In this document: positions 36,978 to 62,143 of the stretch, in pieces
How the letters are laid out: every line of letters begins with the position of its first letter
Numbering within the stretch: position 1 is the first letter of the stretch
From: Escherichia coli
GTDB lineage: Bacteria > Pseudomonadota > Gammaproteobacteria > Enterobacterales > Enterobacteriaceae
Reading direction: 5' to 3' (one strand)
Length of the DNA: 64,000 nt
Assembly: GCF_050920415.1 (NCBI RefSeq)
Contig: NZ_CP169309.1
Made by a program: the position numbers and the translations under genes
The notes under the pieces: model-generated
The model's input: only the letters and a program-made list of their open reading frames with translations
What the model was told of the DNA's origin: nothing
The model's database searches: none

Positions 36978-37293
36978 AATTTATCCACCTTTTTACCGAG
37001 CTGTATCATTCATATAATTCATTTGACAAAAAGTCACTATCAAAAATCGCTCATAATTTCTGATCTGTAGGCATACTTTCAAACGCATTTAAATAAATAG
37101 CGAGTTAACTTCAAGCAATGTATTTAAAAATGGAGTAATAATTATTGTCATGTTGATAATGGTGTCACCTGGCTATACAACACCTTACCTATGAAACAGA
37201 AAATCAACATTACAACAACAATAAGGGTTCTCGGTGTTTTTCCTGGAACATGGTAAAGTAAGGACATTCTTAACCCACACCTTGAGGTGCCCG

Positions 37294-53780: not shown

Positions 53781-54671
53781 ATGGCAATGGTCCAACCGAA
53801 ATCGCAAAAAGCACGTTTGTTTATTACTCATCTGCTACTGCTACTTTTTATCGCGGCGATTATGTTCCCGCTGCTGATGGTCGTCGCTATCTCTCTGCGT
53901 CAGGGGAACTTCGCGACTGGTAGCCTGATCCCGGAACAAATCTCCTGGGATCACTGGAAACTGGCGTTAGGTTTTAGCGTTGAACAGGCTGATGGGCGCA
54001 TTACGCCACCGCCGTTCCCGGTACTGCTGTGGCTGTGGAACTCAGTAAAGGTCGCCGGAATTTCCGCGATTGGCATTGTTGCGCTCTCCACCACCTGCGC
54101 CTACGCTTTCGCCCGTATGCGCTTTCCTGGCAAAGCGACACTGCTGAAAGGCATGCTGATTTTCCAGATGTTCCCGGCGGTGCTTTCACTGGTAGCGTTG
54201 TATGCGTTATTTGATCGTTTGGGTGAGTACATTCCATTCATCGGCCTGAATACTCACGGCGGCGTAATCTTCGCGTACCTGGGGGGGATTGCGCTGCATG
54301 TCTGGACCATCAAAGGCTATTTCGAAACCATCGACAGTTCGCTGGAAGAAGCGGCGGCGCTGGATGGTGCAACACCGTGGCAGGCCTTCCGCCTTGTCCT
54401 GTTGCCGCTGTCAGTGCCGATTCTGGCGGTGGTGTTCATCCTGTCGTTTATCGCTGCCATTACTGAAGTTCCGGTCGCGTCGTTGTTACTGCGTGACGTA
54501 AACAGCTACACCCTGGCCGTGGGAATGCAGCAATACCTCAACCCGCAAAACTACCTGTGGGGTGACTTTGCCGCCGCTGCCGTGATGTCTGCATTACCGA
54601 TCACCATCGTCTTCTTGCTGGCTCAACGCTGGCTGGTCAACGGACTGACGGCAGGTGGTGTGAAAGGTTAA
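53781..54671 (+). CDS. malG: Maltose ABC transporter permease MalG
   Basis: 296-aa polytopic ORF with EAA loop motif ([15 protein letters not shown]). Confidence 0.96.
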
Positions 54672-54741
54672 AGATGTTGTTCTGCCAATGTTATGCCGCT
54701 ACACCCTCAACTTACGTTATCCCAACTTGTGACTGTTATTC

Positions 54742-54766
54742 GGCGCTCTATGGAGCGCCTTTTTTT
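54742..54766 (+). terminator. Rho-independent terminator after malG
   Basis: ggcgctc/gagcgcc stem followed by T7; overlaps psiE stop codon on the other strand. Confidence 0.75.
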
Positions 54767-55175: not shown

Positions 55176-55290
55176 AGCAGTACCTCCTTCACAATGGCGA
55201 GGTTCCTGTATAACCCAAAAATGTGACGGAGATCTATATTTTTTGTGTATGTTTTGTTCAGATCGATTAAATGGGCATCTCCCAACCAAC

Positions 55291-55362
55291 GCCGGATGCG
55301 GCGTGAACGCCTTATCCGTCCTACCCGTAGGCCGGATAAGCCGCGCCTGGCGGCGCATCCGG
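55291..55362. repeat. REP/BIME cluster upstream of psiE
   Basis: gccggatgcggcgtgaacgccttatccgtcctac and gtaggccggataagccgcgcctggcggcgcatccggc. Confidence 0.85.
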
Positions 55363-55464
55363 CAAGACAAACCGCACCATAGCCTGTAATGCAAAAATCA
55401 CCCATTCAGGTGATTCCCAGCCACCAGCAATGCGCGAAAAATCGACAATGTTCCTCTGGAACAA

Positions 55465-55789: not shown

Positions 55790-57886
55790 TTAGCGGAAAT
55801 TGACGCTTCGGTCGCTGGTCATGTCATACAACTGGAACTTACGCCCAAGTTGCTGACCACCGTCACGCGTCAGCGGCGTCCAGCCAATTGCCGCTCGGCT
55901 ACGAGTCGGGCCAGACGAGAAGAGATCCAACGGTACAGAGATATACACGCCTTTGGTGAAGTCCCCTTCGCCGTACTCCTCTTTCGAAACATTCGTGATC
56001 GTGGCATACCCACCCACTACCACGCCGCTGTCAAAGCGTTTGGCGATTTCCAGCGTGCCGCCTTTATCCCCTGCCAGATATTGCCCGACGCTGGCTTTCA
56101 CTAACACATCCTGAGCGAAAGATGGCGTCCAGTAGGCGGTCAAATGACCAGTTTTCACGCTGTAATCGGTGAATTTCATCATATCTTTCGCGCTACGCCA
56201 GTCGCGCTGTTTAACGTAGTTAGCATCCAGACCAAACGCCCAGTTGCTATCCAGCGGGCGATACAACACCTCTGCCCCCGCGCCGCCAAACATGGTTTCG
56301 AGATAACCACCGTAGACCTGACCGTAGAAGCCGTTGCCCAGATGCTGGAAATAGTTGGCTTGCAGGTTATTCACATAGACATCATTCTGCACATACTCAC
56401 GCACATGGGTACGAACGCGCGGTAAGTGCGAGTCCTGCGGTGGATTGGTGTAATTAAACTTGTCGTAATTGTTCGCCAGGTTAGCAAACAGGCTACCGGT
56501 GGTCAGCAGATGGTCCGTCAGCCACAAATCCGCCGTTCCCATCACGCCCAACTGGTACATGTAAAAGTTTTCCGGGCCCCCGACCGACTGGTTCAGCACC
56601 GGATCGATATGGAAATCAAAGCGTGATTTGTCGATATACCAGCCCTGCTCGGTGGACGCAGGAACTACCGGCTCGACGCGTTTTTGCGCCAGCGTCGTTT
56701 CGTGGCCCAACGGCTCTCCGGCAAGATGATTTTTCAGGCTGGCGACATCCGTTTCCGTCGTCACCTGCGGCATGTTAAGGCGATTTTCTGTAACGCGGAT
56801 CGTCTTGATCCCCTCCGGCAGATCGTTCATCACGATCCGATTAGCACGGATGATCCCTTCACGCGAATCACGATATTTCACCTGCTCACCGGTGACGTAC
56901 AGCGTATCGCCTTTCGTCTGGATCTGCGGATCGGCCAGTCCGGCGTTGTATTTCAACAGCGTTAACTGATTCGCCACCACCGAATGCTGCAAAATGGCAT
57001 CCTGTGGTTGCGGTTGATATTGCGGACGGGCGTTATCATTGTAGGACGGGCGTAGATCGTTAAAGTTGGTACGCAGCGTGACGCCAAACATAAAGGTGTT
57101 ACCGCGTTCATAGCTAAGGTTAACGTCGGCCCAATCGGTAACGCGATAAATCGCCCCGACGTTAAACTTACTTTTTTGCTCCAGCTTCCCGGCAAAATCC
57201 TGCTGATAATTATTGCCTTCATACTCCAGTTTCAGACGCAGCGGCTGCCAGGACGTCTGGTATTCCACGCCGCCAAACAGTGAGGCCGGACCGTGGAACA
57301 TCTGGCTGCCGTCGATAGATCCCGCTTGTTTGTAGCTGTTATCGCGATAGCAATATTTGTCACTGGCTGAACAGAGCGGATTTTTCACGTTACCGCTGGT
57401 GCCCAGATATCCCCAGCCCAGGCCGAGCGTAAAATCGAATGGCCCCCAGGCTTTGCTGGCGACAAGATATTCCGCATCGAACAGCCCCGTACCGCCGATA
57501 TCCCGCGCACCAACCGCCACCTGTGGCAGCCAGTAACTCTCTTCCCATAAACGCAGTTTGAGATCGAAGGCTTTATCTTTATACGTTTGATCACCAGAGA
57601 ACGCTTCGACGCTGCTGTACTGCCGAGTGCGCACGTCGGTATAACGCAGCGTTGTTTCCAGCCACGGGAAGAGTTGCACTGAAGCTGAGTAATAACGGTA
57701 CTGATCGTTATCGCGATAGTTCAGACTCAACTCCCCTTCCCGCGCCATGCGCGCGGTAGGTGTTTGTAATAATCCTACACCACCGAAATCCGATTGCGAC
57801 GGACCAATGGGCGCAGGATATGTTTCGCCGTAGCAAGCTGTGCTAATGCCCAGCGCCAGTAAGCTAAGCAGATGTCTTTTTTTCAT
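55790..57886 (-). CDS. yjbH: Outer-membrane lipoprotein YjbH (GfcD-like)
   Basis: 698-aa ORF; lipoprotein signal LALGISTAC; C-terminal aromatic residue typical of beta-barrels; start abuts yjbG stop. Confidence 0.9.
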
Positions 57887-58623
57887 TATTGCGGTATCCG
57901 CTGCGTCAGAGTCTGAAGAATGTCAGCGTTAAGGGCATCAGGTGTCTCACTCCAGACGGAGTCCGCGAGGCCAACATAAATAATGCTGCCGGGCATCGGC
58001 TCTACGTGACGCTTGTTCCAGTAAGCCACCGGCGCTTTTTGCGTGCGTCCGTCCGGGTAAACCACCCACGCGTAGCTGCGATCCGCACCGCTGAGCAGGC
58101 TCTGGTCAGAGAGATAGCTCGCCACGTCGCGACCGGGAGTGAATGACTGCTTGCCTGGACGACTGATAAGCCCGAACAACGTGACCGTGGACGGCGGTGG
58201 TCCGACCCACAGCGTGTAGTTGCCCTGCAACGGCGGGTTACCGCGTTCGGCAACGCGCACGATATCAGAATCAAGATTGATTTTTTGTCTGCCCGTCACC
58301 TTCAACGCCTGAATTTGCTGGCGTAAGGCGTTAATGGCGGCAGCATCGTCGGCGCTGGAATCTGCAGCCAGTTCTGCCAGCCGTGTCAGCAACGCCTGCT
58401 GCTGACGCAATGCAGCCGCCGTTGCTAGCTCTTCGCTAATCACCGCTCCGGGCCACCAACTGTTTGCGAGCCGCGGTTGACCCACCAGATCAATTAAATG
58501 CTCTGCGCCTGTCAGCGTTTTGGCCTCATTGCTGCCATTGCTGAACACTTTGACGGTGCCTGCCGCAAAGACCGATGACGCTCCCACGCTCATAATCAAC
58601 GCAGCAATAGTTTGTTTAATCAT
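57886..58623 (-). CDS. yjbG: Periplasmic protein YjbG (GfcC-like)
   Basis: 245-aa product starting [20 protein letters not shown]; overlaps yjbF stop by 4 nt. Confidence 0.88.
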
Positions 58624-59258
58624 TGTTTTGCCGCCTTGATGAGAGTGGTTTTCACCGGGAAATAATCCGCGCCGAGATACTGTTCCGACTGGCGAATTTG
58701 CCCTTCGCTGTCGATCCAATAGCGGTTATGCCAGCGCGCCTGGTCGGTGGAGACTTCTTCGTCCAGCACACGAACCGGAGTTTCATCGCTACCGACTTTG
58801 ACGGTATCGGTGCCATCCCATTTGAAAACCGAGCGTGCGGTGGCGTAGCGCACCTGCTGGTACTCGGTCCAGCCCATCGTGCGCGTCCAGGTTGCGCCAT
58901 CAACAATTTGTGCGGGTTTTATCAGCGGGTCGGCGGCAAGGTTATTCACTTCAATCAGGTTATCGCCGCCAAGCAAAGTCTTCACCAGACGACCATGTTG
59001 TGTGACGAGAGTGGCCTGATCCTGAGTGACCCATTTTTGTTGTCCATCTTCAGCGAAGGCCAGCACCACAAACAACTGCGGCCCGCCATTAAGCTGCATG
59101 TACTGGCTGGCGTAGGGCATATTTTGAATATCATCGTCCGTCAGCTGTACGCCTGGCGTACCGAACAGACTGTCCCACAGTGAATTGCCCAGCTCTTTAG
59201 TCGTGGCTGAACAGGCCTGTAATAGCAGGCAGATAAGAATGAGTGCAGGTCGCTTCAC
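58620..59258 (-). CDS. yjbF: Lipoprotein YjbF (GfcB-like)
   Basis: 212-aa product with lipobox LLQAC; probable GTG start at 59256-59258. Confidence 0.85.
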   Translation of the reverse strand: MKRPALILICLLLQACSATTKELGNSLWDSLFGTPGVQLTDDDIQNMPYASQYMQLNGGPQLFVVLAFAEDGQQKWVTQDQATLVTQHGRLVKTLLGGDNLIEVNNLAADPLIKPAQIVDGATWTRTMGWTEYQQVRYATARSVFKWDGTDTVKVGSDETPVRVLDEEVSTDQARWHNRYWIDSEGQIRQSEQYLGADYFPVKTTLIKAAKQ

Positions 59259-59372
59259 GACTCTTCTCCAGAGGGGCAGAATAACCACACCGGAGTGTGG
59301 TTATGGTTAATCCCCGTCATACTTCAAGCCACAGATGCGATGACTCAAATTATTTTGGGGATACATACTTTA

Positions 59373-59615
59373 TTACTGGGTACTGGTGGTCGTGGTTGTT
59401 GTGGTCCCGGTATTAGAACCATCACCGCCACCGGTTGCCGCGAGCGCGACACCCACCGCCGAGCTTACGGTGCTGACGCTGGTTGCGGAGGAGCTACCCG
59501 CCGAAACCGACGTTGCTGCAGACCCTGCCGCTTCGCCCACCTGTACAGGTGCAGCCCACGCAGAAGTCGCCGCAAGCGCAGATATGGCAAAAATGCCATA
59601 CAGAACTTTTTTCAT
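59373..59615 (-). CDS. yjbE: Small secreted low-complexity protein YjbE
   Basis: 80-aa ORF; signal peptide [21 protein letters not shown] then Ala/Ser/Gly/Thr-rich region ending in a poly-Thr tract. Confidence 0.88.
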
Positions 59616-59969
59616 AACAATTTCCCTTCATTGAATGAATGGAGATTTACCCAAAAACATTTCGGGCGGGATCGAGTATACACAACTAAAGCATGCGAAT
59701 TACGGCGCGGAGAATTAGTGATGGGGTTTTAGGATAATTGGAATGAATATCAAATATAAGCTTCAGCTTATATATAAATAACACTAAAAATCATAAGCTT
59801 AAAATAAAAATAAAAGTAATTAATCTGCGTATTTTCCGAAATCAATCATGATTAAAAATCTATTTTAGGATTAACCTCACGGTATGATTTTCGTTAAATC
59901 ACAGACAAGGGGATTTATCTGATAAAACAATGCCGACTTATAGTCGGCATTGTTATTAAGGTTATTTAA

Positions 59970-61619
59970 TTAACCGCGCCACGCTTTATAGCGGTTAATC
60001 AGACCATTGGTCGAGCTATCGTGGCTGCTGATTTCTTTGTCATCTTTCAGCTCTGGCAGAATACGGTTCGCCAGCTGTTTACCCAGCTCCACGCCCCACT
60101 GGTCGAAGGTGAAGATGTTCAGGATCACGCCCTGAGTAAAGATTTTGTGCTCATACAGCGCAATCAACGCACCCAGGCTGAACGGAGTGATTTCGCGCAG
60201 CAGGATAGAGTTGGTTGGGCGGTTACCTTCGAACACTTTGAACGGTACCACGTAGTCAAGCGTTGCCGGATCTTTACCCTGATCGCGATATTCCTGCTCA
60301 ACCACTTCGCGGGATTTACCAAACGCCAGCGCTTCGGTCTGAGCGAAGAAGTTAGACAGCAGTTTCTGGTGATGATCAGAGAGCGGGTTATGGGTGATAG
60401 CCGGGGCGATGAAATCGCACGGCACCATCTTCGTACCCTGGTGGATCAGCTGGTAGAACGCGTGCTGACCGTTCGTGCCAGGTTCACCCCAGATAATCGG
60501 GCCAGTCTGGTAATCCACAACGTTACCGTTACGGTCTACATACTTACCGTTGGACTCCATATTGCCCTGCTGGAAGTACGCTGCGAAACGGTGCATATAC
60601 TGGTCGTACGGCAGAATCGCTTCAGTTTCCGCGCCAAAGAAATTGTTGTACCAGATGCCGATCAGCGCCAGCAGTACAGGCAGGTTTTTCTCTGCAGGTG
60701 TGGTGGAGAAATGCTTGTCCATCGCGTGTGCGCCGGAAAGCAGTTCAACGAAGTTATCAAAGCCGATGGAGAGAACAATCGACAAGCCAATCGCTGACCA
60801 TAAAGAGTAACGACCGCCGACCCAGTCCCAGAACTCGAACATGTTGGCGGTATCAATACCAAACTCACCAACGGCTTTGGCATTGGTTGAGAGCGCCGCA
60901 AAGTGTTTCGCAACGTGTTTCTCATCACCTGCCGCTTTCAGGAACCAGTCACGCGCGCTATGGGCGTTGGTCATGGTTTCCTGAGTGGTGAAGGTTTTAG
61001 ATGCTACCAGGAACAGCGTGGTTTCCGGGTTTACTTTTTTCAGCACTTCCGCGATGTGAGTTCCATCGACGTTAGAAACAAAGTGCATGTTCAGGTGATT
61101 TTTGTACGGACGCAGTGCTTCGGTCACCATGTACGGCCCGAGGTCAGAACCGCCGATCCCGATGTTCACTACGTCAGTGATTGCTTTGCCGGTATAGCCT
61201 TTCCACTCACCGGAAATAATCGCTTCCGAGAAGGTTTTCATCTTCTCCAGCACGGCGTTAACTTCCGGCATGACATCTTTGCCATCAACCAGAATCGGGG
61301 TATTGCTACGGTTACGCAACGCTACGTGCAGTACGGCGCGGTTTTCAGTGCGGTTGATCTTCTCGCCAGAGAACATCGACTTAATCGCACTCGCCAGATC
61401 GCACTCTTTCGCCAGATCCTGTAATTTCGCCAGCGTCTCTTCAGTGATGCGGTTTTTGGAGTAATCCACCAGCATCTGATCGTCGAAGGTTGCGGAGAAC
61501 TTAGAAAAACGATCGCCGTCTTTAGCAAAAAGATCGGCGATCGTAACGTCTTTCATTTCATCGAAGTGTTTCTGTAGTGCCTGCCAGGCCGCGGTCTGCG
61601 TTGGATTGATGTTTTTCAT
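59970..61619 (-). CDS. pgi: Glucose-6-phosphate isomerase
   Basis: 549-aa product starting [19 protein letters not shown]. Confidence 0.97.
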
Positions 61620-61839: not shown

Positions 61840-62143
61840 ACTACCTGCGCTAGCGCAGGCCAGAAGAGGCGCGTTGCCCAAGTAACGGTGTTGGAGGAGC
61901 CAGTCCTGTGATAACACCTGAGGGGGTGCATCGCCGAGGTGATTGAACGGCTGGCCACGTTCATCATCGGCTACAGGGGCTGAATCCCCTGGGTTGTCAC
62001 CAGAAGCGTTCGCAGTCGGGCGTTTCGCAAGTGGTGGAGCACTTCTGGGTGAAAATAGTAGCGAAGTATCGCTCTGCGCCCACCCGTCTTCCGCTCTTCC
62101 CTTGTGCCAAGGCTGAAAATGGATCCCCTGACACGAGGTAGTT
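61840..62143 (+). promoter_or_regulatory. lysC 5' leader containing the lysine riboswitch
   Basis: About 300-nt untranslated leader recognised as the E. coli lysC leader; putative -35 TTGACA at 61803-61808 upstream. Confidence 0.85.

Follow-up and report, generated by a model that had tools for sequence, protein, structure and literature searches.

The segment at positions 59373 to 59969 of the window (the whole 64,000-nt stretch of Escherichia coli DNA analysed) comprises the promoter-proximal part of the yjbEFGH operon on the chromosome and the spacer upstream of it. This identity is secure, and we regard the explanation developed below, taken as a whole, as highly probable. The four genes are the following:

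59373..59615, minus strand: yjbE coding sequence, 80 aa (from the list of open reading frames, Pfam, the RefSeq annotation of the identical locus, identity with K-12 and composition)
58620..59258, minus strand: yjbF, a lipoprotein gene with a GTG start and the lipobox LQAC, paralogue of GfcB (Pfam PF11102, 6e-64)
57886..58623, minus strand: yjbG, a periplasmic GfcC-family protein (Pfam GfcC_N and GfcC_C, 7e-49 and 4e-42)
55790..57886, minus strand: yjbH, an outer-membrane beta-barrel protein, paralogue of GfcD (Pfam PF06082, 8e-270)

YjbE matched the Pfam family YjbE (PF11106) over its whole length (5e-33) and was 100% identical to YjbE of K-12. Together with the Pfam matches of the other three proteins and the synteny pgi-yjbEFGH-yjbT-psiE, this bore out the operon identity given in a preliminary description of the locus. 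Gene order, strand and chromosomal position were those of the K-12 operon (b4026-b4029), which is the same locus. The two yjbE genes differ by six synonymous and no non-synonymous changes, and the pgi/yjbE spacers are ≈ 95% identical apart from a 144-bp REP-type insert that K-12 carries directly after pgi and that the window lacks. When 5426 complete E. coli genomes were searched with an 801-bp query (59200-60000), 5422 gave a match, and every match was annotated as yjbE/yjbF/pgi. A match of at least 99% was obtained in only one of the 5426; in this single identical genome, the annotated gene order is malG, psiE, yjbT, yjbH, yjbG, yjbF, yjbE, pgi, lysC. On these comparisons, the locus is core E. 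coli and not horizontally acquired.

Overlaps of 4 nt (ATGA) and 1 nt (TAATG) join yjbF to yjbG and yjbG to yjbH, respectively. The overlapping start and stop codons that had been noted for the operon are limited to these two junctions, whereas yjbE and yjbF are separated by a spacer of 114 nt (59259-59372). The genes for YjbF (an outer-membrane lipoprotein of the GfcB/YmcC fold family), YjbG (periplasmic) and YjbH (an outer-membrane barrel) are translationally coupled. YjbF and YjbG have solved homologues (PDB 2IN5, YmcC, 3e-43, and PDB 3P42, 2e-53), and the AF2 model of YjbH consists mostly of beta strands with an alpha/beta region in the centre. Pfam found no glycosyltransferase, polymerase or flippase domain in YjbE, YjbF, YjbG or YjbH; the neighbours are pgi on one side and yjbT/psiE on the other. 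Because the four proteins contain none of these domains, yjbEFGH would be an outer-membrane accessory for the export or anchoring of a polysaccharide made elsewhere rather than a biosynthetic cluster. A PADLOC scan gave no matches.

The yjbEFGH operon is homologous to gfcABCD, of which GfcA and GfcD are uncharacterised (PMC11494523, PMC8592465). In gfcABCD, which makes up the front half of the group 4 capsule operon (EPEC O127; b0984-b0987 in K-12), the order of the four genes is the same and the proteins are of nearly identical length. Both operons have a 4-nt (F/G) and a 1-nt (G/H) overlap, in line with the 1-4 bp gene overlaps reported in PMC8592465, and in both a gap of ∼ 106-114 nt with a hairpin follows the first gene. 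Comparison with the proteins of the K-12 gfc locus by BLASTP gave 39% identity for YjbF/GfcB (2e-54), 41% for YjbG/GfcC (6e-65) and 65% for YjbH/GfcD (E = 0). Judged from these alignments, the paralogy of YjbF with GfcB, of YjbG with GfcC and of YjbH with GfcD is clear. The paralogy proposed in the preliminary description was not detected for the first gene. BLASTP detected no similarity between YjbE and GfcA (E = 65), GfcA did not match PF11106, and hhalign of YjbE-type against GfcA-type alignments aligned the signal peptides alone, no similarity being found between the mature parts. What can be read from the two proteins as common is only their position, their architecture and a short C-terminal motif. 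Each combines a signal peptide with a stretch rich in T/S/G/A, a hydrophobic patch of G/A/V, the motif D-G/S and a tail rich in Thr. The patch of GfcA-type peptides is of membrane-spanning length (KD19 2.0-2.3), whereas that of YjbE is not (1.1-1.4). In the group 4 capsule operon, gfcE-etp-etk (wza-wzb-wzc-like) lie downstream, whereas yjbH is followed by yjbT and psiE; yjbEFGH is only the ABCD-like half of that operon. Further homologous modules of four genes, with a small gene in first place and a link to capsule or exopolysaccharide, are orf1-wbfDCB of Vibrio anguillarum and gfcABCD of Aeromonas (PMC8592465).

A genome scan with an alignment of YjbF and GfcB yielded 21 loci: 13 of the yjbE type (Escherichia to Buttiauxella), one in Mixta, three of the gfc type and four distant gammaproteobacterial ones. 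Directly upstream in all 21 lies a small gene encoding a signal peptide and an A/S/G/T/V-rich peptide. The E-F-G-H order and the F/G and G/H overlaps were kept in nearly all of them, the exceptions being two assemblies with broken genes. The leader peptides of Mixta and of an Enterobacter sp. are of intermediate length. Those of Arsukibacterium and a gammaproteobacterial MAG are longer, contain poly-Pro and Cys-containing inserts, and have canonical terminators after their genes.

The yjbE reading frame is divided as follows:

59553-59615, minus strand: signal peptide codons, with a predicted cleavage site
59376-59552, minus strand: mature low-complexity peptide
59385-59405, minus strand: poly-Thr run, T71-T77

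The signal peptide ends in AWA, and cleavage at this putative site would leave a mature chain of 59 aa. This chain contains 13 Thr, 12 Ser, 11 Ala, nine Gly and seven Val, so that A/S/G/T/V make up 88%, Ser and Thr 42%, and Val and Thr 34%. It has one Asp, one Glu, no Lys, Arg or His, no aromatic residues and almost no Gln or Asn. The C-terminal tail is Thr-rich and includes the poly-Thr run. YjbE had been described as an 80-aa exported protein whose mature part is nearly all Ala/Ser/Gly/Thr/Val and ends in poly-Thr, and this was found to be correct. The codons of the Thr run are mixed (ACC ACA ACA ACC ACG ACC ACC), and the run is therefore not a slippage tract. We found no protein repeats in YjbE, the only repeat being one of 9 nt in the DNA, a trivial consequence of the poly-Thr codons, and no Pfam family other than PF11106. 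NCBIfam/TIGRFAM models of sorting signals (PEP-CTERM, GlyGly-CTERM) matched neither YjbE nor GfcA. Searching a protein database with YjbE brought up chiefly fragments and frame-shifted versions of yjbE itself and was of no use for distant relatives, for which genome loci found through YjbF were taken. We also modelled mature YjbE joined to YjbH by a 40-residue Gly/Ser linker with AF2, using a 12-row paired alignment. The YjbE part had a pLDDT of 22-27 and no strands, and the model gave no signal of docking on YjbH, a result that is uninformative on binding. Mature YjbE is probably disordered, and the low pLDDT of the model is consistent with this.

Mature YjbE is 86-100% identical across genera, as compared with 66-99% for YjbF (leaving out one locus with a broken yjbF), 54-95% for YjbG and 83-99% for YjbH. 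Nei-Gojobori dN/dS of mature YjbE was 0-0.115 across related loci. Among the closest species, it was well below that of yjbG (0.07-0.16), and among more distant species, it was still lower than that of yjbG. The last 29 residues, including the length of the poly-Thr run, are almost invariant despite many synonymous changes. Since identity is high, dN/dS is low and synonymous changes occur without change of residue, the comparison argues that the low-complexity sequence of mature YjbE is under strong purifying selection on its exact sequence and is not drifting filler. That yjbE is a regulatory leader reading frame whose product is irrelevant was ruled out by the signal peptide and by the purifying selection on the mature sequence.

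Two hairpins lie in the spacer between yjbE and yjbF, whose fold as a whole has z = −2.9:

59281..59304, minus strand: candidate attenuator or 3'-end stabiliser hairpin, with a perfect 10-bp stem, AUAACCACAC-UCCG-GUGUGGUUAU
59310..59362, minus strand: second, longer hairpin, predicted by folding

The element AUAACCACAC-(U)UCG-GUGUGGUUAU followed by U-rich sequence is present in 13 of 13 yjbE-type loci, mostly with the loop cUUCGg (UCCG in the window). Its sequence is invariant, and covariation therefore lends it no support. The U-tract of the window hairpin is weak, and no terminator was detected when the window was scanned. In every lineage, including Mixta, the gfcA-type and the distant loci, the leader gene is followed by a terminator-like hairpin. 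It has a different G+C-rich stem followed by U's in the gfcA-type loci and is a canonical terminator (GGCCGCC...GGCGGC, then UUUUUU) in the distant ones. The hairpin at 59281-59304 is, as far as its structure allows a reading, probably a partial terminator or a stabiliser of the yjbE 3' end. Either function would explain the excess of yjbE mRNA: in a passage of PMC8208086 that cites Ferrieres 2007, yjbE mRNA is stated to be usually more abundant than yjbFGH mRNA, which is ascribed to stability. It would also imply that YjbE exceeds YjbF, YjbG and YjbH. The longer hairpin occurs in Escherichia only and is absent in the other genera; it gave a weak, sub-threshold match to the Rfam family isrH.

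The spacer upstream of yjbE (59616-59969, with pgi at its far end) is 354 nt long and has 31.4% G+C as compared with 50.8% for the window. Sliding 200-nt G+C went down to 27%. The spacer contains the following elements:

59926..59954, minus strand: pgi terminator hairpin, an inverted repeat with a 13-bp perfect stem and then a U-rich run on the pgi strand
59866..59879, unstranded: box 1, the best RcsB/RcsAB-box candidate, TAGGATTAACCTCA / TGAGGTTAATCCTA, ∼ 250-264 nt upstream of the yjbE ATG
59826..59839, unstranded: box 2, TTTCGGAAAATACG on the gene strand and TTTTAGGAnnATACG in other genera, a footprint block with five mismatches to the RcsAB consensus
59730..59743, minus strand: box 3, TTCCAATTATCCTA, a footprint block and RcsAB-box-like half-site matching the consensus at 9 of 14 positions
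59672..59686, minus strand: invariant block GTTGTGTATACTCGA, with a candidate −10 element TATACT at 59675-59680 and a poor −35
59649..59667, minus strand: predicted 5'-UTR hairpin 1, GCCCG...UGGGU (RNAalifold)
59620..59646, minus strand: predicted 5'-UTR hairpin 2, an inverted repeat in which CCAUUCAU pairs with the Shine-Dalgarno region GAAGGGA at 59623-59629 (RNAalifold)

The AT-rich upstream control region of ∼ 355 bp proposed in the preliminary description is thus real in length and composition. It is, however, not exceptional: in G+C it belongs to the lowest 2.4% of 354-nt windows, and the window has three further regions, at about 14.8-16.1 kb, 35.6-37.3 kb and 45.1-46.8 kb, whose A+T content is equal or higher. 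The pgi stop codon is at 59970, and the pgi terminator, which had gone unnoticed inside the proposed control region, occupies the distal end of the spacer. For this reason, the usable yjbE control region is ∼ 310 nt.

Alignment of the upstream regions of 13 lineages revealed short conserved blocks between variable sequence with indels, and an almost invariant 5' UTR. The RcsAB consensus is reportedly that of Wehland and Bernhard (2000). Box 1 keeps all six of its core positions and shares ATCCTAAAA with box 3. It is also an exact match to TN(G/A)GAN4(A/C)CTNA, a lower-affinity RcsB motif (PMC7913699). This motif occurred five times in the window (4.3 expected), and neither the RcsAB consensus, scored by mismatch count, nor the RcsB IUPAC motifs exceeded chance within the window. 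The search for RcsAB boxes that had been suggested therefore produced, in box 1, a candidate conserved across genera whose match, in this sequence taken by itself, does not exceed chance. For 11 other yjbE-type loci the full 400 nt upstream were available, and 6 of these contain the exact motif. It is the conservation of position across genera, not the motif match itself, that gives the RcsB-type boxes their weight. RcsB-type boxes were found upstream of both yjbE and the intact gfcA loci; in the latter, the box is a perfect palindrome, TAAGATTTATCTTA, and lies 204 nt ahead of the ATG.

The block GTTGTGTATACTCGA was invariant in 13 of 13 aligned upstream regions and in 14 sequences, and we infer that this block with its TATACT is the putative yjbE core promoter. 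The 5'-UTR hairpins were predicted with RNAalifold from 14 sequences of 13 lineages. In hairpin 1, 100% of cells were paired, with one compensatory pair (C-G/U-A) and G-U/G-C changes in two pairs. The sequence of hairpin 2 was invariant and without covariation, its length changing only in the loop (two Pluralibacter loci). The shuffle control of this 5'-UTR fold was weak, as 71 of 500 shuffles did as well.

Expression data for the operon have been published. [quoted passage not shown] The activation by envelope stress through Rcs assumed in the preliminary description is therefore in the literature, as are the operon identity and the relationship to gfc. Combined with the elements above, these data suggest the following scheme. 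Transcription would start in the AT-rich spacer upon activation by RcsA-RcsB under envelope or osmotic stress, as the literature has it, the activator probably acting through the conserved RcsB-type boxes upstream of the invariant TATACT promoter block. The product of yjbE would be exported by Sec and cleaved to the nearly uncharged, aromatic-free A/S/G/T/V chain of 59 residues with its poly-Thr tail. The hairpin after yjbE would probably attenuate read-through or stabilise the yjbE message, and YjbE may accordingly be made in excess over YjbF, YjbG and YjbH, consistent with the reported abundance of yjbE mRNA. Such an excess would speak for a role of YjbE as stoichiometric partner or as cargo of the machine, and not as catalyst.

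The conservation of the spacer could have another origin. The preliminary description had overlooked an Rfam match on the opposite strand, which is preceded by a promoter-like site:

59812..59961, plus strand: match to Rfam RF02053 (STnc430), a candidate sRNA antisense to the yjbE direction, 72.6 bits (gathering score 47)
59778-59805, plus strand: sigma-70-like site, ending 7 nt before the STnc430 match

On this reading, the AT-rich spacer would be conserved largely as the gene of STnc430 and not for the control of yjbE, which we consider improbable. The match exceeds the gathering score, covers the full model (positions 1-162), starts just behind the sigma-70-like site and ends in the pgi hairpin, which would supply the terminal hairpin. 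It also overlaps boxes 1 and 2. Salmonella STnc430, however, is a computational candidate only, a class V prediction in the pgi/yjbE spacer flagged 'np' with 0 cDNA reads in the Hfq study (Sittka 2008 supplement). The −35 of the plus-strand sigma-70-like site is not conserved, and the spacer is conserved across genera as short blocks with indels between them, a pattern that fits protein-binding sites better than RNA. Because conservation is block-wise, we prefer to read the match as conserved regulatory DNA plus a terminator, which is more likely than a real sRNA. Silencing of the yjbE promoter by H-NS, proposed in the preliminary description and here taken to be relieved by Rcs, is a possibility that we find more doubtful than not, if less remote than an STnc430 gene. 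Low G+C with A/T tracts is typical of H-NS-bound DNA, and the spacer has A/T tracts and 27-34% G+C over ∼ 350 bp. AT-rich spacers are, however, common in the window, the locus is core rather than horizontally acquired, and among the searchable papers we found none linking H-NS to yjbE.

For the peptide, the preliminary description had suggested an amyloid-like or heavily O-modified product. That YjbE is small, secreted and rich in beta-branched residues, and that a gene for an outer-membrane barrel lies next to its own, invites the idea of an amyloid-like matrix subunit. Against it, YjbE matched neither curlin nor any other amyloid family in Pfam and has no imperfect protein repeats; the scarcity of Gln and Asn, the lack of aromatics, the strandless AF2 model and the absence of a nucleator gene speak the same way, and we consider an amyloid YjbE extremely unlikely. 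The idea that the YjbE/GfcA-type peptide is itself the cargo fares somewhat better, while still being an unlikely one. The peptide would be a Ser/Thr-rich carrier, modified (e.g. O-glycosylated) or exported as such, YjbF/G/H would be its dedicated outer-membrane export device, and the polysaccharide phenotypes would follow from this. Each of the 21 loci has a leader peptide gene ahead of F-G-H, YjbE is strongly conserved despite its low complexity, and its mature part is rich in Ser and Thr. Chaperone-usher pilus operons begin with the gene of the major subunit (papA, fimA), a small secreted product made in abundance; behind it lie a stem-loop and then the translationally coupled genes of the outer-membrane machinery. 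With its terminator-like hairpin, the leader gene is laid out much like such a subunit gene, an arrangement that would yield more E than F/G/H. The analogy is one of expression logic only, there being no relationship in sequence or fold between papA/fimA products and YjbE, which has no predicted fold. It has also been suggested that the Ser/Thr-rich GfcA is perhaps modified and directed to GfcD, so that the idea of O-modification had already been raised for GfcA (PMC8592465). On the other hand, Pfam revealed no modifying enzyme encoded in the yjbEFGH operon, and the AF2 model gave no docking signal. Models of GfcD homologues show outer-membrane proteins of two barrels with a lateral gate, for which export of lipid-anchored polysaccharide has been proposed, and the molecular-dynamics work favours a lipid-anchored glycan as the cargo of GfcD (PMC11494523). 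We retain the view of yjbEFGH as an accessory for a polysaccharide made elsewhere.

For the yjbEFGH locus itself, a textbook case within the Rcs regulon, these results change nothing. They do bear on one gap. The GfcD/YjbH family has been described as among the most widespread families of outer-membrane proteins (PMC11494523), and an established function is lacking both for this family and for its leader peptide. As a speculation to which we give a small chance, the leader peptides (YjbE, GfcA and the distant relatives) may serve a widespread outer-membrane module of four genes as its conserved stoichiometric cargo or as a component of the surface, produced in hairpin-driven excess. YjbFGH/GfcBCD would then at heart export or anchor a mucin-like and perhaps glycosylated peptide, and would not be a plain polysaccharide pore. 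Handles on the role of YjbE are offered by the strictly conserved low-complexity peptide, the constant hairpin after its gene, and the conserved boxes and 5'-UTR structures.

The spacer between pgi and yjbE is 354 nt long in the window versus 498 nt in K-12, because the window lacks a 144-bp REP-type insert. In the K-12 locus (L003), this insert occupies positions 2392-2535, directly 3' of the pgi stop codon; it is absent at the corresponding junction, window 59969/59970. When the 801-bp region spanning window 59200-60000 was compared with 5426 complete E. coli genomes, a single genome, that of a Korean food isolate (NZ_CP169399.1), was at least 99% identical; 5399 were 95-99% identical. The ≥99% class having a single member, this allele is rare among sequenced strains.

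Within the spacer, Rfam family RF02053 (STnc430), a candidate enterobacterial sRNA family, scored above its gathering score at window 59812-59961 on the plus strand, that is, opposite to yjbE. In Salmonella, STnc430 is a prediction only, with zero reads.

A perfect palindromic RcsB box, TAAGATTTATCTTA, lies 204 nt upstream of gfcA in L018 and L019. The loci that carry it are intact gfcA loci from Escherichia sp. and E. albertii; in K-12, IS1 is located immediately upstream of gfcA. The top RcsAB-consensus match of the whole window was TAAGGACATTCTTA (37259-37272), which is palindromic and has three mismatches. Flanked by a DUF2713 gene on one side and zur on the other, this site is close to the Rcs-regulated yjbJ.

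Long open reading frames overlap yjbE in mirror or alternative frames (59386-59634, plus strand; 59494-59631, minus strand), a consequence of the biased composition of yjbE. Many YjbE variants in public protein databases are frame-shifted and cross over into these frames.

The leader peptides of the distant loci L021-L024 (Arsukibacterium spp. and a gammaproteobacterial MAG) are longer, at 105-129 aa, the shortest length varying with the start codon chosen. They contain two cysteines and a GT-repeat tail that terminates in an aromatic-containing motif. A poly-Pro run is present in the three Arsukibacterium peptides, and the MAG peptide has a short Pro-containing stretch. Canonical terminators were found downstream of all four leader genes.

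Other features of the window were as follows:

45014-46594, minus strand: stretch with a gene for a SopA-family protein, flanked by ubiC and malM
55275-55422, both strands: sub-threshold Rfam matches to naRNA4, between psiE and yjbT
61856-62052, plus strand: lysine riboswitch (Rfam, 99.5 bits), upstream of lysC, as expected

The naRNA4 matches probably mark REP-type repeats. Nearby, malG adjoins psiE (54671-54765); xylE, which separates these genes in K-12, is absent from the window's strain. The stretch containing the SopA-family gene is the most AT-rich of the window, with a G+C minimum of 27%.
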